A stretch of 32,000 nt of DNA, from NCBI RefSeq assembly GCF_008000775.2, contig NZ_CP042905.2:1080001-1112000 (forward strand). Direction: 5' to 3'. The DNA is from Promethearchaeum syntrophicum. Lineage in GTDB: Archaea > Asgardarchaeota > Lokiarchaeia > Sigyniarchaeales > Promethearchaeaceae. How positions within the stretch are numbered: position 1 is the first letter of the stretch; each line of letters opens with the position of its first letter. The notes under the pieces are model-generated. The model was not told where the DNA came from and did not search any database. It saw only the letters and a list, made by a program, of their open reading frames with translations. This document shows positions 8,741 through 29,794 of this stretch, one piece after another. A program made the translations under genes and the position numbers.

Positions 8741-10087
8741 ATGTCTAAAGAAAAATTTCCTCGAAAACCTGAGCATCGGAAAAGACTTCTGTATTTAGAC
8801 TCTGTTCGAGGATTTTGCACAATGATCATTATTGTTGCTCATGCATTTTCCCATTTAATGTTTTGGGATATGAATTTAATTCCGCTGGAAGAGGTTTCCA
8901 TTATCGCAATAATTATTCTTGCACCAGTTATTATTCTTGCTACAAGTGCTCCTGCTTTTGTTCTTTTTTCAGCTAGTGCTCTTTCCTACAATTTTTACTT
9001 AGATATTAAAGAATTTATCAAGTTTAAATCGGAGAATATTCCTAATCAAAAAACTCAAATAGATATATCATTTAAAGATCCCGCTCTATCCCGGATTGTG
9101 AAAAAAAATCTCATCAGTTATTTAGTTTTATTGGTAGCATCTCTTGCTCATGTATTTTTATTTCACTATGGTTTAAATTGGAATGGTCGAGTTCAACGCA
9201 CATTGTTAACAGGGATTTTGGAAACGGGAAGTTTTACAAGTATAGATTATGAAGTTTTTTTTCAAACTGATGCTATTGGATTAATCGCTATTAGTGGAAT
9301 TTTCAATGTGGGACTTATTGTTCTTCTATTACGAAAACAAGGATATTATAAACCTAAGCGTAATCTCCTTATTCTCTTGGGGTTAATTATTGTATGGTAT
9401 ATTTTATCACCACTATTTCATAATTTACTCGATGATTTATTTTGGCAAAGTCTTAATGATGGTCGATATGGGATTACACTCTTACTAAAATTTATTGTAG
9501 GACCTCCAATGAGCATTTTTCCGAACTTTGCATTTGGATTTGCAGGTATAATTTATGGGTTTGGTTTTGCTCAGGAACAAAGTCGTGCATTTTTCCGTAA
9601 ATTAGCATTATATTTTTCAATCCTTTTTATCAGTGTTTCAGGAACCCTTATATTAATTAATGGGTTCAATCTTTCTCCTGAGTCATTTGGATTATTCCTT
9701 CCCCTAGAACTTCAGATTCTTGATTTCGCAGTCATTCAAATCTTGGTTATCATTTTTATTGAAATTATCAAATACTCCAAAAAATCAAAAAATGAAATAA
9801 CTAAATCCACTCGTATTTGGCAGAGATTGGGAAATGTTACTATGACTGCCTATATTTTTGAAAGTGTGTTATGCATTTTGAATATGAAGTGGTATATTCC
9901 CCTTTGGGAAAAACTTCCACAATCTTCATTAATTCTACATTTAGAAGTTTTTATTTTTGTTGGAATGCAGTTTGCTTTATGGTATGGGATTATATTGCTT
10001 TGGGAAAAGAAAAATTTCAAATTCTCAGTAGAATGGTTTACGAAAATTATTAGGAAGAAATTAGTAAAAAATAATAAAAAAAAATAG
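8741..10087 (+). CDS. multi-pass membrane protein, acyltransferase-3/DUF1624 (HGSNAT-like) superfamily candidate
   Basis: The N-terminal RKRLLYLDSVRGFCTMIIIVAHAF matches the R-x-x-x-D-x-x-RG...H signature of membrane acyltransferase_3/DUF1624 proteins, followed by ~10 TM helices. I prefer ATG 8741 over the TTG 8732 in the ORF track. Confidence 0.5.
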   Translation: MSKEKFPRKPEHRKRLLYLDSVRGFCTMIIIVAHAFSHLMFWDMNLIPLEEVSIIAIIILAPVIILATSAPAFVLFSASALSYNFYLDIKEFIKFKSENIPNQKTQIDISFKDPALSRIVKKNLISYLVLLVASLAHVFLFHYGLNWNGRVQRTLLTGILETGSFTSIDYEVFFQTDAIGLIAISGIFNVGLIVLLLRKQGYYKPKRNLLILLGLIIVWYILSPLFHNLLDDLFWQSLNDGRYGITLLLKFIVGPPMSIFPNFAFGFAGIIYGFGFAQEQSRAFFRKLALYFSILFISVSGTLILINGFNLSPESFGLFLPLELQILDFAVIQILVIIFIEIIKYSKKSKNEITKSTRIWQRLGNVTMTAYIFESVLCILNMKWYIPLWEKLPQSSLILHLEVFIFVGMQFALWYGIILLWEKKNFKFSVEWFTKIIRKKLVKNNKKK

Positions 10088-10102
10088 TACATTCTATGTG
10101 TT

Positions 10103-11968
10103 TCATTTAAGAACAGATATTGTTTCTTCTTCTTCGGGTTCAAATTGACTATTATGCAACTCTGCATAAAAGCCTCCACGTTTGAGTAATTCTTCATGAT
10201 TTCCTTGTTCTACAATATCTCCATCACGCATTACTAAAATTAAGTCTGCATCGCGAATGGTTGATAATCGATGAGCGATTACGAAACTTGTGCGATCTTT
10301 CATTAAATTATCCATTGCTTTTTGAATTAAAAGTTCAGTTCGAGTATCCACTGAGCTGGTAGCTTCATCCAAAATTAAAATTTTTGGATCAGCAAGAACT
10401 GCCCGAGCTATTGTAAGTAATTGCTTTTGCCCTTGAGATATATTCGTGATTTCTTCATTGAGTATCATATCATAACCTCCAGCTAAAGTGTGAACAAAAT
10501 GATCAACATGGGCTGCTTTGGCTGCTCTCATTATGTCTTCTTCGGTTGCATCAGGGTGACCGTATCGAATATTATTTCTGATCGTGTCATTGTAGAGCCA
10601 TGTATCTTGCAAGACCATTCCAAAAGTATTCCGGAGGTTTTCTCGTGAGTATTCACGAACATCATGATTATCCACCAAGATAGCGCCATCATTAACATCA
10701 TAAAACCTCATTAATAGCTTAACCATCGTGGTTTTACCGGCTCCTGTAGGCCCAACAAGTGCAATTTTTTGTCCTCGACGAGCAATAGCGGAGAAATTCT
10801 TAATGATAATCTTATCTGGGCTATATCCGAATTTAACATTTCTGAATTCAACGACCCCTACTTTATCTTCACATTGACATGGAGTTTTTGTTTCAGCGAT
10901 TTCTTCATCTTCATCGAGAAATTCAAACACTCGTTCAGCTGCAGCACCAGTTTGTTGAAGGGTACTAGAAACATTCGCCAGCTGCCCTAACGGTCTCGTA
11001 AATGATCGAACATATTGGATAAATGCTTGAATATCTCCAATATTAATGCTACCTTGAATTGCTAACCATCCTCCTAAAATTGCAACAACTACATATCCTA
11101 AATTGCCTATGAAATTCATGATTGGCATCATCAAGGTTGAAAAGAATTGGGATTTCCATGCAGTTTTATATAAAGTTCCATTATACTCTCCAAATTTCTC
11201 TATGCTTTTTTCCTCCCCATTAAAGGACTTCACTACAAGGTGTCCGCCATACATCTCTTCAACATGGCCATTTACATGTCCCAAATATTCTTGTTGTCTT
11301 GTGAAATATTTCTGAGATCTTTTTAAGATAATACCTAACAAAATCATGGATAATGGAATTATTGCTAAAGATACTAAAGCAAGAAGCCAGTTTATTGTGA
11401 ACATCATCACAAGAACTCCGATAACCGTCACTATTGATGTTATTAATTGTGTGATACTTTGACTTAGAGTTTGATTTATTGTATCTACATCATTTGTAAT
11501 CCGTGAAAGGACTTCCCCTTGACTTATACCATCAAAATATTTTAATGGCATTCGATTGATTTTTTCGGATATATCTTTTCTAAGCCGAAAAGAAATATCG
11601 GTTGAAATATTTGCCATTATCCATCCCTGAATATAACTAAACAGTGATGAAACAGCGTAAAGTATCAAGACACCGATTACAATCTTACCAATTGCGGTAA
11701 AATCAATATCTCCCAAACCTCGAATTTTTCGGACTAAACCTTCGAATAATTCTGTGGTTGCCTGTCCCATTATTTTTGGACCGACAATCATTGCTGCAGT
11801 AGATCCTATAGCGAATATTAAGACAATTATAAAAGATTTTTTATAATGAGACATATAGGAGAAAAGTTTTTTCATAGCCATCTTGATGTCACGAGCTTTT
11901 TCTGGCTTCGCTTTCATCATACCTCCTCCTGGACCACGTCTCCGAGATCCAGCTGGTCGATGCATCAT
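10103..11968 (-). CDS. ABC exporter half-transporter (TMD-NBD), canonical-hydrolysis subunit of a heterodimer
   Basis: Walker A GPTGAGKTT, Walker B ILILDEATSSVD and H-loop IAHRLST are canonical. The signature motif is degenerate (ISQGQKQL). The N-terminus RRRGPGGGMMKAKPEKARD is typical of the YheH/BmrD/LmrD/TM288-type half. Its ATG overlaps the upstream stop (ATGA, 11965-11968). Confidence 0.9.
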   Translation of the reverse strand: MMHRPAGSRRRGPGGGMMKAKPEKARDIKMAMKKLFSYMSHYKKSFIIVLIFAIGSTAAMIVGPKIMGQATTELFEGLVRKIRGLGDIDFTAIGKIVIGVLILYAVSSLFSYIQGWIMANISTDISFRLRKDISEKINRMPLKYFDGISQGEVLSRITNDVDTINQTLSQSITQLITSIVTVIGVLVMMFTINWLLALVSLAIIPLSMILLGIILKRSQKYFTRQQEYLGHVNGHVEEMYGGHLVVKSFNGEEKSIEKFGEYNGTLYKTAWKSQFFSTLMMPIMNFIGNLGYVVVAILGGWLAIQGSINIGDIQAFIQYVRSFTRPLGQLANVSSTLQQTGAAAERVFEFLDEDEEIAETKTPCQCEDKVGVVEFRNVKFGYSPDKIIIKNFSAIARRGQKIALVGPTGAGKTTMVKLLMRFYDVNDGAILVDNHDVREYSRENLRNTFGMVLQDTWLYNDTIRNNIRYGHPDATEEDIMRAAKAAHVDHFVHTLAGGYDMILNEEITNISQGQKQLLTIARAVLADPKILILDEATSSVDTRTELLIQKAMDNLMKDRTSFVIAHRLSTIRDADLILVMRDGDIVEQGNHEELLKRGGFYAELHNSQFEPEEEETISVLK

Positions 11969-14220
11969 GATAATCCCTCCAATGCAAGCTGTGAAACAGC
12001 AATTTCTTTATATGTTTCACATGTTTCAAGTAATTGTTCATGTGTTCCTTTTCCAATAATTCTTCCTTCGTCTAAGACAATAATTTGTTCTGCATTCATA
12101 ACAGTAGAAACACGTTGTGTCACGATAAGTAAGGTGCTGTTTCCTGTTGTCTGCTTCAAAGCTCTTCTGAGTGCAGCATCAGTTTTAAAATCTAATGCCG
12201 AAAAACTATCATCGAAGATATAAATAGGTGGTTGCTCAAGTAAAGCGCGAGCAATGGATAAGCGCTGTTTTTGACCACCCGACACATTTGTTCCGCCTTG
12301 AGATATTGCAAGAGACATTCCTTGATCCTTAGCAAAAACAAATTCAGCAGCTTGTGCAGTAATTATGGCATTCTTCAATTCTTCTTGAGTAGCATTCTCG
12401 TTTGCATAAAGTAAATTACTTTCAATTGTTCCCGAGAATAATGTGTTTTTTTGAGGAACATATCCTAATTTTTCCCGTAAGTCGTGTTGGGTTACCTCTT
12501 GAATGTTGATGCCATCTATCAAGATGGAACCTTTTGACGCTTCATAAAAACGCGGAATTAGATTTACAATTGTTGATTTTCCGGAACCAGTTGCACCAAT
12601 AAATGCCGTCATTTGACCAGGATGTGCGGTGAAAGAAATATTATGAAGAATGTCTTTCTCAGCATTTGGGTATCGAAAAGATACGTCCCGAAACTCAATT
12701 TTTCCTTCAAAAGGGGATGCAAATTGCTTGGGATTTTGTATATCTTTAATTGATGGTTCAGTATTCAGCACTTCTTTGATTCGCTCGACTGATACTGAAG
12801 CTCGTGGTAGAATTATGAACATCATAGTCACCATCAGAAATGCCATTACGATTTGCATTGCGTATTGTAAAAATGCTATCATATCACCTACTTGCATTGT
12901 TCCGTCGGCTACTTCATGAGATCCGTACCAAATTATTGCTAAAGTTAGTACATTCATAATTAACATCATCATTGGCATCATAATAACCATTATTCGGTTT
13001 ATAAATAGACTGACCTTGGTAAGATCGCGATTTGCATTCTCAAAACGCTCCTCTTCATTTTTTTGCATATTAAATGCCCGAATTACCATCATTCCTGAAA
13101 GATTTTCTCTGGATACAAGGTTGAGGCGATCAATTAATTTCTGAACTATTTTAAATTTCGGGAATGCCACGATGAAGACTGTCAGAATAAGGAGGATAAG
13201 AAGAAGTACTGCGATTCCAACAATCCACCACATAGAGGAGGCCTTATCTAACGCCCGGATGACACCCCCAATCCCCATTATTGGAGCATAAAAGACCATC
13301 CTTACAATGATAAATACCATCATTTGAATCTGAGTAACATCATTTGTAGATCGAGTAATAAGGGATGCGGTAGAAAAGCTGTCAAATTCCGCACTGGAGA
13401 AGTTTTCAACTTGTTCAAATACATCTGCCCGAATTTTCTGAGCCATTCCTGCTGAAGTTTTAGCAGCTAAAAATCCAACTGTGACCGTGGCTATGACTGA
13501 AAGAAGGGTAAATAGAAGCATGATTCCTCCAGACTTGAGAATAAACATTAATTCTATATTGTCTATATCTACACCAATTGCTTCATATTCAGCAATTACT
13601 GCTACAATCGCAATTTGATTAAGCATCGTCTCTCCCAAAGCAGAAAAATTCTCAACAATTCCCTCTCTCATCACCGTCCGATTAGCGGGATCAACAACAA
13701 ACTCCAGAAATTGGTAAAAGGAAGATTCTGTAGGGAACATAGTAAGATCGAACCCCAAATCCATTCCTGTATCTATAGTCACGTTGTGTTGTGTTGCGTT
13801 GTAGATTTGATTCAAACTAAAGACTACAGTCATTAATTCTGCCATTGCAGGTTCTAAACCTTCAATGTCTGACTTACTAGCATTTGATAGTACGTAAATC
13901 GATTCGTTTACCAGTATTGGGTATTCCTCCAGATATTCCTCGTAGTTTTGAGAAGTATTAGTGATAAGCGAATAATTTCCCTTAATCAGAGTTTCTTCTT
14001 CGGGAGTCATAAAAAGCTCCAGTTTGTGCATTTCAGTTTCGCGAATTCCTAAAGGTACCGTACTTTCAATACCTTGTTGTTGGATCCCAGTATCTACAAT
14101 ATCCGATAAGTAATCAGGTAGGGACAGATCTAAATTTGCTTGGGCGAATAACAGCACAATGGCCAGAAAAATCATTGGCAAATAGGGTACTGCATATTTA
14201 ATTATTCTTTTTTTTACCAT
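11965..14220 (-). CDS. ABC exporter half-transporter (TMD-NBD) with large extracytoplasmic insert, degenerate-site subunit
   Basis: Walker A GATGSGKST and signature VSGGQKQR are intact. Walker B is IYIFDDSFSALD (Asp in place of the catalytic Glu) and the switch is TQRVST (Gln in place of His). An insert of ~190 aa between TM1 and TM2 carries 8 N-x-S/T sequons. Confidence 0.9.
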   Translation of the reverse strand: MVKKRIIKYAVPYLPMIFLAIVLLFAQANLDLSLPDYLSDIVDTGIQQQGIESTVPLGIRETEMHKLELFMTPEEETLIKGNYSLITNTSQNYEEYLEEYPILVNESIYVLSNASKSDIEGLEPAMAELMTVVFSLNQIYNATQHNVTIDTGMDLGFDLTMFPTESSFYQFLEFVVDPANRTVMREGIVENFSALGETMLNQIAIVAVIAEYEAIGVDIDNIELMFILKSGGIMLLFTLLSVIATVTVGFLAAKTSAGMAQKIRADVFEQVENFSSAEFDSFSTASLITRSTNDVTQIQMMVFIIVRMVFYAPIMGIGGVIRALDKASSMWWIVGIAVLLLILLILTVFIVAFPKFKIVQKLIDRLNLVSRENLSGMMVIRAFNMQKNEEERFENANRDLTKVSLFINRIMVIMMPMMMLIMNVLTLAIIWYGSHEVADGTMQVGDMIAFLQYAMQIVMAFLMVTMMFIILPRASVSVERIKEVLNTEPSIKDIQNPKQFASPFEGKIEFRDVSFRYPNAEKDILHNISFTAHPGQMTAFIGATGSGKSTIVNLIPRFYEASKGSILIDGINIQEVTQHDLREKLGYVPQKNTLFSGTIESNLLYANENATQEELKNAIITAQAAEFVFAKDQGMSLAISQGGTNVSGGQKQRLSIARALLEQPPIYIFDDSFSALDFKTDAALRRALKQTTGNSTLLIVTQRVSTVMNAEQIIVLDEGRIIGKGTHEQLLETCETYKEIAVSQLALEGLS

Positions 14221-25396: not shown

Positions 25397-26296
25397 TTAT
25401 TTCCTGCAATATTTCTTAAGATCTCTTACACGAACCCTAAGGGTGACCTCTGTAATATGTGCTAATTTTGCAATCTCATTCTGAGTTCTTGGATTTTTAT
25501 GAATATGAGATGTTATATAGAGTGCAGCAGAGGCTAATCCTTTGGGATCTTTTCCCTCAATAAGTAATCCATGTCTTTTTGCAAATTTTAACAATCTGAT
25601 TGCATCTTGACTTACTTTCATGGGTAAATTTAATTCTTCCCCAAATTTATCGACATATCTGATTGGCCCTAAATGCATGACTTTTATGTTCATTTCAGGG
25701 AGTATTCTCATTAAAAGTAAGCGATAGCATTTTACTACATTCTTTTTTGGAGTATCCATTGCTGTAAGAATTTCTTCAACAACTCTTGGAATTCCATGAA
25801 TCTTTAGGCTTGCAAAAATGGATGCGGCCATTAAAATATCAATACTACGACCCATTGTCAGTTTTGCCTTTACCGCATTTTGATAAATTTGAATTGCATC
25901 TTTTATCACTGTATCAGGAATCCCTAGGCGTTCCTGGAGTCTTTGGAAATTAGGTAATGCTATCCAGAGATTGCGTTCATAGCTACTTGTTAGTGATCGG
26001 TGAATTTTACCTAAGCGATTAAATTTAATTTGCTCTTCGACTGGTATTAATGATCCTTTTGAATCAGTGTTTCCTCTAATTATTGTTCGTGGTCCAATTG
26101 GAGAGTAAACCGGCTCATTCTTCTTTCGCTTATTTCGCTCTTCTTGTGTAAAAGCTCTTCGTGGTGAATTATCAAATATTCGTTCGAATACTACTCCACA
26201 ATTTAAACATACATTAAAACCTTCACGATCTCCAATATTCGGGTTTGCACAACATTTTTCCTGTTTGATCAGTTCTTCTCGTCTAAAAATTTGCAT
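25397..26296 (-). CDS. tfb: transcription initiation factor IIB (TFB)
   Basis: N-terminal Zn-ribbon region (CCANPNIGDREGFNVCLNCG), a B-reader/linker, two cyclin-fold repeats (GRSIDILMAASIFASLK..., GKDPKGLASAALYITSH...) and a C-terminal HTH (TQNEIAKLAHITEVTLRVRVRDL). Confidence 0.9.
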   Translation of the reverse strand: MQIFRREELIKQEKCCANPNIGDREGFNVCLNCGVVFERIFDNSPRRAFTQEERNKRKKNEPVYSPIGPRTIIRGNTDSKGSLIPVEEQIKFNRLGKIHRSLTSSYERNLWIALPNFQRLQERLGIPDTVIKDAIQIYQNAVKAKLTMGRSIDILMAASIFASLKIHGIPRVVEEILTAMDTPKKNVVKCYRLLLMRILPEMNIKVMHLGPIRYVDKFGEELNLPMKVSQDAIRLLKFAKRHGLLIEGKDPKGLASAALYITSHIHKNPRTQNEIAKLAHITEVTLRVRVRDLKKYCRK

Positions 26297-27728: not shown

Positions 27729-28316
27729 ATGGATAAAGTCGATATGAAACTACTTGCGGCAATGGAGGAGAATTCTAGGATCTCTTTGAAGAACCTCGCT
27801 CGTGATTTAAACGTAAAAACAAGCACCATTTATCACCGCTTACACAAGCTCAAAGAAAGCAATATTTTGGAGAATTTCACGATTATAATCAATCCGGAAG
27901 CGGTAGGACTTAATAAACATATCATCATGAACATCAGGTTAAAGAAGATGGTAATAGGAAAACTGGATACCATGTTTTTAGAATCATTTGGCAAATTTTT
28001 GGCTGAACAATATGAAGAAGTGTTATTTAGTTCAGTTGGCAGTGATGAGATGATTTGGATCATAGCAACTTTTAGAGATGATAAACATTATGAGCAGTTT
28101 AAATCCGAAATAAGCGAGAATCCTTACATTGAGAATTCCGAAACAGTTCTTTTAAATAGTATCTTGAAAGGGCAAAAAATCTTCAAATTTTTACCAAATT
28201 TACTGAAACAAGAAGCTAAAGGAGATTATTTTAGTGAAGATGATGAAGATGAAAAACCAGATGCAAATAAAAAGAGCAATTCAAGTGAAGATGATGAAAC
28301 CGATATCTTCTTTTAA
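27729..28316 (+). CDS. Lrp/AsnC-family transcriptional regulator with acidic C-terminal tail
   Basis: N-terminal HTH DMKLLAAMEENSRISLKNLARDLNVKTSTIYHRLHKLKESNIL, followed by an RAM-like alpha/beta domain and then a 35-aa D/E-rich tail. Confidence 0.85.
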   Translation: MDKVDMKLLAAMEENSRISLKNLARDLNVKTSTIYHRLHKLKESNILENFTIIINPEAVGLNKHIIMNIRLKKMVIGKLDTMFLESFGKFLAEQYEEVLFSSVGSDEMIWIIATFRDDKHYEQFKSEISENPYIENSETVLLNSILKGQKIFKFLPNLLKQEAKGDYFSEDDEDEKPDANKKSNSSEDDETDIFF

Positions 28317-28336: not shown

Positions 28337-29794
28337 TCAAATATCATCTCGAATATTCGCATAATCGATCTTTTTTTCTTCTTTGGGCATACTTTCTGGA
28401 AAATTTAATGCAACATCAAGTGGTGTTTCAATAAATTCGGGTTCTTTCACTTTATTTTCATTTTCTGTAGAATTAGATAAATTATCGATTACTTTCCTAC
28501 CCAAAGTGATATAGCCTGGATTAAATTTTTCTTCAACGGTAGAATAACTCCCTTGCTGTTCAATATTCACACTTCGTTTAATTAATTCACAAGTAGAAAT
28601 CTCGAAATAATTTAATCTATACATTTGATCGAAATATGACTTAGCTATTTCAATAAATTGACCTAAGATACAGAGAACCCTTCCATTTTCTAAGAATACG
28701 TGTAATTTTTCTACAAGCTCATTGGAATTAATAGAATCAACAATAATTCCATCAAAATTCATATTTTCCAAGTTTAAAGTTCTTAGAATGTTATCGATAT
28801 CTTTGGGATCAGGATGAGACGGGATTTTAATGACATGAACATTACTCTGATCATCGCCATTTCTGTCATAAAATTCGTGGAATAGTTTGGGAAGCGGAGT
28901 TTTTTTATTTTTAGGGCAAACGAGCAAAATATTATCACCTGGGGAACATCCAAGATGAACTAACATATATCCAATATTCTCTGGAGAATAGTATGAGAAA
29001 TATTTTGTAGATAAAAGTGGCTCTGAATTACGATTTGCAAATGTAAGGTATCCTGTATGACCATTGACTCTTCCCTTAGGCCTCGTTGCGTTTGGTTTTA
29101 CTTGAAAATCCCTTTTAATCAATTCAATTGTGTGAATATTGAAAAATTGGTTTTCTTTCAAAACTCGATGATTTTTTTTTACCTGTTCTATAGTTGGGCT
29201 AAAACAACAAATTTTTCCTTTAGGACTAAGATTTTTCACAACCTTAGGAATAGCTTCCCATGTTGTTGCTAAATCAAGCAATGCAAAATCTATTTCATGT
29301 AAATCTAAATCATCCTCGCAAATATTCATTAATTCAACGGAACAATTATCTTCAGCCTTAAACATCTTAATATTCTTTCTTGCTTGTTTAATTGCAATAT
29401 CTCTAATATCAAATGAATGGACTTGACCATTTGGACGGCAAAAAATCCCCATAAGGCTTGTAACAGTTCCACTTCCAGTTCCAGCTTCAATTATTTTAAA
29501 TCCAGATTGAATCCCGCTGTAAGTTAGGATAAGACCTATATCTTCGGGATAAATGATTTGCGATTGCCTCTTCATTGAATAAATTGTGTCTGAGAGTAGT
29601 GCAGGTAAAATTGCAACTTTTAATTTACTTGGATTAAGACGTGCAGTTTCGCCATAATTTTTTCCAATGATATCATTAAATTTTAAAAATCCTCTGTCGG
29701 AGTGAAACTCGGTATCTTCTATCGCTTTTCTTACCCATTTTCTTCGTTTATCATAAATAATGTAAACTAGATCACCATTCAATATTTTAGGCAT
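28337..29794 (-). CDS. trmI: tRNA (adenine-N1)-methyltransferase TrmI/Trm61 family with an internally duplicated, degenerate second catalytic-domain copy
   Basis: The N-terminal beta domain plus IYPEDIGLILTYSGIQSGFKIIEAGTGSGTVT...FDIRD...LDLATTWE...RPKGRVNGHTGYLTFANR is classic GCD14/TrmI. Residues ~268-434 repeat the same fold without the Gly-rich SAM loop. Confidence 0.85.
   Translation of the reverse strand: MPKILNGDLVYIIYDKRRKWVRKAIEDTEFHSDRGFLKFNDIIGKNYGETARLNPSKLKVAILPALLSDTIYSMKRQSQIIYPEDIGLILTYSGIQSGFKIIEAGTGSGTVTSLMGIFCRPNGQVHSFDIRDIAIKQARKNIKMFKAEDNCSVELMNICEDDLDLHEIDFALLDLATTWEAIPKVVKNLSPKGKICCFSPTIEQVKKNHRVLKENQFFNIHTIELIKRDFQVKPNATRPKGRVNGHTGYLTFANRNSEPLLSTKYFSYYSPENIGYMLVHLGCSPGDNILLVCPKNKKTPLPKLFHEFYDRNGDDQSNVHVIKIPSHPDPKDIDNILRTLNLENMNFDGIIVDSINSNELVEKLHVFLENGRVLCILGQFIEIAKSYFDQMYRLNYFEISTCELIKRSVNIEQQGSYSTVEEKFNPGYITLGRKVIDNLSNSTENENKVKEPEFIETPLDVALNFPESMPKEEKKIDYANIRDDI

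Follow-up and report, generated by a model that had tools for sequence, protein, structure and literature searches.

Why does a tRNA methyltransferase gene in the Asgard archaeon Promethearchaeum syntrophicum carry, behind what looks like a complete TrmI subunit, a second copy of the catalytic domain that lacks the motifs for binding S-adenosylmethionine (SAM)? The gene lies on the reverse strand at positions 28337..29794 of the 32,000-nucleotide stretch that we analyzed (hereafter the window; contig NZ_CP042905.2, positions 1,080,001 to 1,112,000) and comprises a TrmI subunit (residues 1-256), a linker, a Rossmann copy (residues 269-436), and an acidic, disordered tail, 485 amino acids (aa) in all. 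A preliminary description, made from the sequence alone, had reported this open reading frame (ORF) and had proposed that it encodes an active plus dead pair in one chain. The ORF is present as described, the nucleotide ranges given for residues 81-254 and 268-434 proved arithmetically correct on recalculation, and the pairing is supported by the homology of the two halves and by a family-wide loss of motifs in the second. The sequence thus supports a chain that joins a putatively SAM-competent TrmI to a SAM-motif-less copy of its own catalytic domain; by hhalign and by a table of motifs, the modules are tandem, homologous, and dead in one of the two. We propose, with a probability of roughly 0.7, that this single-chain pair of enzyme and pseudoenzyme dimerizes to a pseudo-tetramer with two active sites, and that it is a convergent analogue of the eukaryotic Trm61/Trm6 enzyme and not its ancestor.

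The N-terminal half (N-half) is an orthodox TrmI protomer. Residues 74-234 matched Pfam GCD14 (PF08704; E = 1.9e-40, 139.5 bits against a cutoff of 26), and residues 5-255 aligned end to end with Pyrococcus abyssi TrmI (3mb5; E = 2.8e-40, 33% identity), in agreement with the canonical TrmI/GCD14 Rossmann domain that had been recognized there from the sequence. Bacterial TrmIs ranked next, followed by TRMT61A and yeast TRM61; the N-half scored 141 bits with P. abyssi TrmI and 77 bits with TRMT61A. The Pfam family TrmI-like_N gave a weak match (E = 5e-4, 20.4 bits against a cutoff of 24). When we compared the AlphaFold2 (AF2) model with solved structures using Foldseek, it superposed on 3mb5 with a target-normalized TM-score (TMt) of 0.90 and a root-mean-square deviation of 2.4 Å over 257 columns, and the TMt values of 0.88-0.92 over ~255 columns to 3mb5, 1i9g, 1o54, and 2pwy identify a protomer made of a beta-barrel and a class I Rossmann domain. 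The motifs EAGTGSG, FDIRD (motif II), LLDLATTW, IIYPEDIG, QVKPNATRP, and GHTGY were invariant or near-invariant in 25 orthologues, so that the SAM and catalytic motifs are all in place, in columns that are also conserved in the solved TrmIs. From the titles of Protein Data Bank (PDB) entries, not from a residue-level alignment, we take these motifs to include the equivalents of Y78 and D170 of Thermus thermophilus TrmI. Judged by its motifs, residues 1-256 would be a complete SAM-binding protomer and would perform the catalysis, forming 1-methyladenosine at tRNA position 58 (m1A58) or possibly at positions 57 and 58 (m1A57/58), as in P. abyssi.

The C-terminal half (C-half) is homologous to the catalytic domain that precedes it. 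BLASTP of the two halves as single sequences returned E = 3e-5 (22% identity over 175 aa) and reproduced the block-by-block register that the preliminary description had set out. We then aligned 25-sequence family profiles of the halves with hhalign, which gave a probability of 99.5%, E = 3.1e-22, and a score of 136.9 over 163 columns; the reversed C-alignment scored 12.4 and 21 column-shuffled alignments scored at most 22.3 (E at least 0.009), so the self-similarity without which the proposal would fall is significant. Searched against the PDB, a profile of 18 C-halves matched solved structures of archaeal TrmI-family proteins: 1yb2 (2.4e-9) and P. abyssi TrmI (4e-4 for 3mb5, and 1e-3); 3lga was among the matches, and no Trm6 chain was. 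In an exhaustive hidden Markov model (HMM) search across 1.84 billion representatives, the C-half profile recovered the fused family and its fragments, then a second tandem group, and then TrmIs of ~250 aa, which it matched over their catalytic domains; no protein of Trm6-like length was among these matches.

Structure led to the same relatives. Predicted alone, residues 270-436 folded confidently (predicted local distance difference test, pLDDT, 78 overall), and its secondary-structure elements follow in the same order as those of the N-half, except that one strand is missing from the aC-b3 region. Foldseek with the C-half matched TRMT61B (1.5e-9), yeast TRM6 (5erg_A, 6.4e-9), P. abyssi TrmI (3e-8), TRMT61A (4e-7), and human TRMT6 (5ccb_B, 1.2e-6), with query-normalized TM-scores (TMq) of 0.48-0.53 by which Trm6, Trm61, and TrmI were indistinguishable. 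By sequence and by fold, the relatives of the C-half are TrmI, Trm61, and Trm6 only, and no unrelated domain emerged. Among Pfam families, GCD14 gave weak, sub-threshold matches to 12 of the 18 C-halves (best E = 0.0025; E = 0.16 and 11.9 bits, against the cutoff of 26, for the copy in the window), and Gcd10p (PF04189) matched 0 of the 18 at E <= 10. At curated thresholds the second domain is therefore invisible to Pfam, with the consequence for annotation that these proteins are labeled plain TrmI or hypothetical in databases. A word-indexed search with the C-half alone had found a single relative, a contig-end fragment of a fused gene. As a separate observation, a stretch of 30 residues in the C-half profile (positions 80-110) matched a protein of 3111 aa (P0139) 13 times (E = 7.6e-11); P0139 is probably a repeat protein whose unit is similar in composition.

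What the C-half has lost is uniform across the family. In all 17 C-halves examined from this family (type 1, as distinct from the second tandem group, type 2), motif I is without its three glycines, motif II without its acidic residue, and motif IV without its Trp; the QVKPNATRP loop and the GHTGY His are gone as well, and the Tyr of IIYPED is replaced by Ser, Thr, Ala, or Cys (by Asn in type 2). The replacement of the SAM loop EAGTGSG in copy 1 by LVCPKNK in copy 2, which the preliminary description had pointed out, is borne out by the alignment, and 0 of 17 C-halves keep any Gly of the loop; with the motif I, motif II, Tyr, and His positions gone family-wide, a retained SAM pocket is not what the sequences indicate. 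The motif IV Asp is the sole SAM or catalytic motif kept. At the lost catalytic positions no new residue is conserved instead, and the C-half has invariant or near-invariant positions of its own.

Much else was kept: helix A still opens with P-E-N-x-G, helix E has I-E-x-x-K, b6 has ELIKR, b7 has GY[IL]TxGRK, and D353 is in place. The parts of the fold that are preserved are helix A and strands b4, b6, and b7. Identity between N- and C-halves was 47% in helix A, 38% in b7, 36% in b6, and 24% in b4, against 9% in the QVKPNATRP loop and 3% in both the motif I loop and bG. Within the C-halves, identity was 61% in b7, 55% in helix A, 48% in b6, 24% in the motif I loop, and 16% in the substrate loop. 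In TrmI, the C-terminal strands b6, bG, and b7 form one of the inter-subunit interfaces (PMC3281791). Because interface strands were retained while the motifs were lost, the C-half fits a domain that has kept its fold and contacts and given up cofactor and substrate chemistry; residues 269-436 would then act as a non-catalytic structural partner, a pseudoenzyme derived from a Rossmann duplicate.

The second half is maintained by purifying selection. We calculated ratios of nonsynonymous to synonymous substitution rates (dN/dS) for the gene in the window against two congeneric orthologues and for those two against each other, and obtained 0.05-0.08 for the N catalytic domain, 0.12-0.16 for the C-half, and 0.12-0.20 for the tail. 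With dS close to saturation the ratios are approximations, but each lies far below 1. Members of the family shared, on average over pairs, 58% identity in the N catalytic domain, 34% in the C-half, 36% in the tail, and 18% in the linker. A survey of relatives for the ~485-aa architecture, as the preliminary description had suggested, returned about 40 fused orthologues, all apparently from Lokiarchaeia (Promethearchaeum, Lokiarchaeum ossiferum, and Harpocratesius). The closest, at 80% identity, are in two metagenome-assembled genomes (MAGs) of Promethearchaeum sp.; more distant ones are found in Candidatus Lokiarchaeum ossiferum B35 (NEF87_004049; 48% identity, complete chromosome CP104013.1) and Candidatus Harpocratesius repetitus (44% identity, a contig of 4.36 Mb). 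Other Asgard MAGs, some labeled Heimdall or Thor, carry a single-domain TrmI. Two of these single-domain TrmIs, P0055 (labeled Thorarchaeota) and P0056 (Heimdallarchaeota), are nearly identical despite their different labels, so class-level taxonomic labels of proteins from Asgard MAGs are unreliable.

The type-1 family goes back to a single duplication. In a domain-level neighbor-joining (NJ) tree (200 bootstraps, built without Trm6 sequences), type-1 C-halves were monophyletic with 100% bootstrap support and their internal topology mirrored that of the N-halves, which implies that the gene underwent a single, ancient internal duplication and that its halves have co-evolved since. The type-1 N-halves nested among single-domain Asgard TrmIs (monophyly 72%). 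The C-half clade fell on a long branch outside the Asgard TrmIs, a placement that we attribute to long-branch behavior and do not read as a sign of an older origin. No stand-alone dead domain was present among the C-half profile matches, so the dead copy is always fused and never a separate gene; candidates for stand-alone dead paralogues (P0123-P0130, P0043, P0062, and P0038) started mid-domain or at contig ends and were rejected as fragments. The ancestral GRK[VI] after b7 is kept by the C-half and lost from the N-half, and thus it is the C-copy that has the native C-terminus, the linker being derived from the end of the N-copy. Beyond b7 follows the acidic tail of ~50 aa that the preliminary description had noticed, which we place at residues 437-485 (pI 4.25). 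The consensus of its first conserved block, EF[IV]E..LD[VI]G, is similar to the extension with which single-domain Asgard TrmIs end, ...K(E)EF[IV].[IL]..MPLRG, and is absent from the non-Asgard TrmIs compared, which end right after b7. The second block occurs once in the window and is absent from the Harpocratesius-like subclade.

A second tandem TrmI shows that the same route was taken twice. Four proteins of 486-490 aa (P0037, P0039, P0040, and P0041) have a barrel followed by two catalytic domains and come from another Lokiarchaeial lineage; on one contig, the adjoining serine hydroxymethyltransferase (SHMT) gene is 80% identical to that of a "Candidatus Lokiarchaeia archaeon," which marks the contig as Lokiarchaeial. 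The two catalytic domains of these type-2 proteins are 58-71% identical to each other and cluster at 99% bootstrap in the NJ tree, whereas a grouping of type-1 and type-2 C-halves received 1% support. The N-copy motifs are intact in type 2, and damage to the SAM motifs is confined to the C-copy and is lineage-specific: motif I reads EAHTGSG, AACTGNG, EVGNGNG, or VASNGNR, the last two accompanied by a change of the motif II Asp to Asn. The C-copies diverge faster as well (57% identity between P0037 and P0039, against 85% for the N-copies). Type 2 is therefore an independent, younger duplication whose C-copy is only now losing its SAM motifs; duplication in cis and loss of SAM binding from the C-copy has thus run twice in Lokiarchaeia. 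Directly downstream of one type-2 gene (L016:9471-15269, reverse strand) lies a gene for a protein of 1932 aa with faint matches to TPR, MIT, and PUB, which are eukaryote-like domains on a Lokiarchaeial contig.

How might such a chain assemble? Two tight dimers make up the TrmI tetramer, which is required for activity (PMC3281791), and a homotetramer binds at most two tRNAs (PMC3281791, PMC5007650). Since no more than two tRNAs are bound and the identical subunits are non-equivalent, two of the four TrmI active sites would be expendable. The full-length AF2 model of the fused protein is compact (pLDDT 86, predicted TM-score (pTM) 0.85), and its linker is modeled at pLDDT 90-91, which suggests that the two Rossmann domains of one chain would pack as an intramolecular pseudo-dimer. 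Two chains would join through their C-terminal beta-strands to give a pseudo-tetramer with two active sites, matching the two tRNAs per TrmI homotetramer. A packing like that of Trm61/Trm6 and the dimerization of the chain are what we infer from the AF2 monomer and the retained interface strands. Arising by an intragenic duplication within Lokiarchaeia, convergent with Trm6/Trm61, the protein would represent a third quaternary solution, of the alpha'2 type.

Several points weigh against this proposal. The packing mode, dimerization, tRNA stoichiometry, and activity are deductions, and the intrachain interface, in a model judged by its pLDDT and pTM, could correspond to either the A/B or the A/C interface of TrmI. 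Trm6 binds tRNA with the help of both its barrel and its basic insertions (PMC5007650). Lacking a second beta-barrel and being acidic (family median pI 5.4), the C-half may contribute less to tRNA binding than Trm6 does, and the geometry may differ. The fused protein could also be a specialized second enzyme and not the housekeeping TrmI. Among the best 120 matches listed, no stand-alone TrmI was a contig-mate of the fused gene on the 6.03-Mb or 4.36-Mb contigs; the patterns of our genome scan (SQIIYPED and EAG[TV]GS[GA]TV[TS]) would miss an Asgard TrmI of the TQIIYPEDAG type.

An alternative is that the C-half has been repurposed as a docking or regulatory module, together with the tail motifs EF[IV]E..LDVG and KIDYANL, in an enzyme that is monomeric or belongs to some other complex. 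The acidity of C-half and tail (pI 5.4 and 4.6) would suit such a role, as would a tail that is disordered yet conserved and under purifying selection, the erasure of the substrate-loop region, and the missing second barrel. However, the best-conserved parts of the C-half, b6 and b7, are interface elements in TrmI, whose activity depends on the tetramer (PMC3281791); the AF2 model is compact (pTM 0.85); and tail block 1 also occurs in single-domain Asgard TrmIs and is therefore not specific to the fusion. We consider this alternative unlikely. That the C-half is instead still an active methyltransferase, binding SAM in a non-canonical way and giving the protein two activities, is hardly credible: D353 and the Rossmann fold are kept, but the motif I glycines, the motif II acid, the motif IV aromatic, and the equivalents of the Tyr and His are lost in every member, and the lost positions were not re-conserved (identity among C-halves is as low as 24% for the motif I loop and 16% for the substrate loop). 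As for a chimeric assembly, read-through across two genes, or a pseudogenized duplicate, the sole point in favor is that Pfam leaves the C-half unannotated. About 40 orthologues with an uninterrupted architecture, one of them on a complete chromosome, dN/dS well below 1 in C-half and tail, and a confidently predicted fold effectively refute a reading as artefact or decaying gene.

The relation to the eukaryotic enzyme needs more care, since the host is an Asgard archaeon. A reading in which the Lokiarchaeial fusion is homologous by descent to Trm61/Trm6, with a C-half that is the ancestor or orthologue of Trm6 and was split off in the eukaryotic stem, has in its favor, besides the host, that yeast Trm6 (5erg_A and 5eqj_A) ranks near the top in the Foldseek search with the C-half (E = 6e-9, 16% identity) and that SAM motifs are missing from both. 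Other evidence speaks against it. Gcd10p matches 0 of 18 C-halves and GCD14 12 of 18, prokaryotic-type TrmIs are all that the C-half profile retrieves beyond its own family, and TM-scores of 0.48-0.53 are alike for Trm6, Trm61, and TrmI. The C-half also lacks the N-terminal barrel and arm insertion of Trm6 (PMC5007650), the N-half is closer to P. abyssi TrmI than to TRMT61A (141 against 77 bits), and the fusion is found in only part of Lokiarchaeia, other Asgard MAGs having single-domain enzymes. The independent second duplication shows, moreover, that convergence is easy. We regard common descent as very improbable, and think no better of the chances that this fusion, or an unsampled Asgard relative, was the source of Trm61/Trm6 through a later gene split after which Trm6 gained its barrel and arm. 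The preliminary description had offered two possibilities, a convergence on the eukaryotic architecture or an intermediate toward it. The former is favored, and the latter disfavored, because the fusion is confined to part of Lokiarchaeia, arose twice, and has a C-half that is acidic, without a second barrel and without Gcd10p signal.

We next compared the proposed active plus pseudoenzyme pair with known systems. Prokaryotic TrmI (3MB5; T. thermophilus 2PWY) has the same protomer as residues 1-256 here and the domain from which the C-half derives. It forms an alpha4 assembly of ~250-aa subunits with four identical sites (PMC3281791, PMC5007650), whereas the fused protein adds a dead Rossmann copy and a tail in cis; because that second copy is without SAM motifs, just one of every two Rossmann domains can be catalytic. 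The likeness to Trm61/Trm6 lies in an active TrmI-type unit paired with a TrmI-derived paralogue that has no SAM or catalytic residues, both having come about through duplication of TrmI, and in the expectation of two active sites per four Rossmann domains in each (PMC5007650). The differences are that Trm61/Trm6 is encoded by two genes and the fused protein is one polypeptide; that Trm6 has its own barrel and arm insertion, whereas the fused dead copy has neither (AF2) and begins with helix A, 12 residues past the end of the N-half; and that Trm6 provides a basic tRNA-binding surface, whereas the fused copy is acidic. The fused dead copy shares with Trm6 a TrmI-like Rossmann fold without SAM motifs, its TM-score to Trm6 being no better than to Trm61 or TrmI. 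It gives no Gcd10p signal and is still alignable to TrmI by sequence, while Trm6 is reported to be similar to its orthologues only. Unlike eukaryotic Trm61/Trm6, the fused form is restricted to Lokiarchaeia and arose independently. Homologues of TRM6 are known only in eukaryotes, with no orthologue in any prokaryotic genome (PMC5007650); the fused family leaves this statement standing but supplies a prokaryotic analogue.

A parallel in evolutionary logic is the archaeal tRNA-splicing endonuclease EndA (alpha4, alpha'2, (alpha-beta)2, and epsilon2), in which a homotetramer of identical subunits with non-equivalent roles gave way, in some lineages, to a homodimer of tandem-duplicated chains with subfunctionalized catalytic and structural units and, in others, to a heterotetramer (PMC3488258, PMC3239211); a parallel between TrmI and EndA is drawn explicitly in PMC3281791. 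EndA has an unrelated fold and chemistry, and the TrmI literature that we consulted has alpha4, in prokaryotes, and (alpha-beta)2, the Trm61/Trm6 heterotetramer of eukaryotes, only, to which the fused gene would add an alpha'2-like form. PRMT7 and PRMT9 belong to another methyltransferase family, are eukaryotic, and act on protein substrates; the C-terminal module of PRMT7 is inactive. Both have two methyltransferase modules per chain, an intramolecular pseudo-dimer replacing the homodimer (PMC13639276). We found no literature that links TrmI, Trm6, or Trm61 (or m1A58) with Asgard archaea or Lokiarchaeota, though subscription journals lay outside our coverage and novelty is thus unproven. If the proposal holds, Asgard archaea would have a third m1A58 methyltransferase architecture, one with the inactive partner fused in cis. 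The halves of type 2 (58-71% identical) and type 1 (~20%) would form a natural time series from a homo-oligomer to an obligate pair of enzyme and pseudoenzyme, and the dispensability of half the TrmI active sites is directly testable, as one orthologue comes from the cultured Lokiarchaeum ossiferum. The features of the fused gene, and the type-2 loci, are listed in the table.

Table. Coordinates of the fused TrmI gene and its parts in the window, and of two type-2 loci on other contigs
Feature	Position	Strand	Evidence
Whole coding sequence, fused TrmI and pseudo-TrmI	28337..29794	(-)	ORF listing, 485 codons plus stop; ~40 full-length orthologues of 453-522 aa
N-terminal beta-barrel, residues 1-66, basic (pI 9.75)	29597..29794	(-)	TrmI-like_N E = 5e-4; all-beta in AF2; superposes on P. 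abyssi TrmI
Catalytic Rossmann copy 1, residues 70-256, SAM-competent by motifs	29027..29587	(-)	GCD14 1.9e-40; 3mb5 2.8e-40; dN/dS 0.05-0.08
Motif I EAGTGSG, Gly-rich SAM loop, residues 103-109	29468..29488	(-)	E103, G105, and G107 invariant in family
Motif IV LLDLATTW with Asp174, residues 172-179	29258..29281	(-)	D174 and W179 invariant; Asp column conserved in four solved TrmIs
QVKPNATRP loop, TrmI-specific, residues 231-239, erased in copy 2	29078..29104	(-)	Identity 86% within N-halves, 16% within C-halves, 9% N against C
Inter-domain linker, 12 residues (257-268), poorly conserved	28991..29026	(-)	18% mean pairwise identity; 10-residue blocks over 251-270 at pLDDT 90-91
Copy 2, degenerate TrmI Rossmann domain, predicted pseudoenzyme, residues 269-436, acidic (pI 5.5)	28487..28990	(-)	hhalign; PDB profile matches; Foldseek; dN/dS 0.12-0.16
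LLVCPKNKKTP, motif I equivalent of copy 2 without Gly, residues 290-300	28895..28927	(-)	Motif table; 3% identity N against C
GIIVDS, motif IV Asp353 retained, Trp lost, residues 349-354	28733..28750	(-)	D353 near-invariant in family
ELIKR (b6, 403-407) to GYITLGRK (b7, 427-434), best-conserved part of copy 2	28493..28588	(-)	Within-C identity 48% in b6, 61% in b7
Acidic disordered tail, residues 437-485	28340..28486	(-)	pI 4.25; pLDDT <50 for 443-470 (AF2); dN/dS 0.12-0.20
Tail block 1 EFIETPLDVA, residues 453-462	28409..28438	(-)	Conserved across fused family
Tail block 2 KIDYANI, residues 475-481	28352..28372	(-)	(E)KIDYAN[LI] in Promethearchaeum and Lokiarchaeum subclades
Type-2 tandem TrmI P0037	L016:8001-9470		
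Further type-2 locus	L017:681-2150		

Finally, we looked at the genomic neighborhood. The fused gene is syntenic with genes for an AsnC-type helix-turn-helix (HTH) regulator, a low-molecular-weight phosphatase, a TFB, and a YhhN protein within the genus only (L001-L003), and this arrangement was not found in Lokiarchaeum or Harpocratesius; with synteny limited to the genus, the neighborhood gives no operon clue. No tRNA genes were found in the window. Among the neighbors, the AsnC/Lrp-type HTH regulator (27729-28316, forward strand), syntenic within the genus only, has an unusually long acidic C-terminal tail (...FSEDDEDEKPDANKKSNSSEDDETDIFF), and the TFIIB/TFB-family gene (25397-26296, reverse strand), which lies ~2 kb away from the fused gene, has 93% identity to its counterpart in the congeneric MAG L002. 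The G+C content of the window ranges from 27 to 37%. It reaches 0.36-0.37 at positions 10001-14000, against 0.27-0.32 elsewhere, in a segment with two large reverse-strand ORFs (10103-11968 and 11965-14220).

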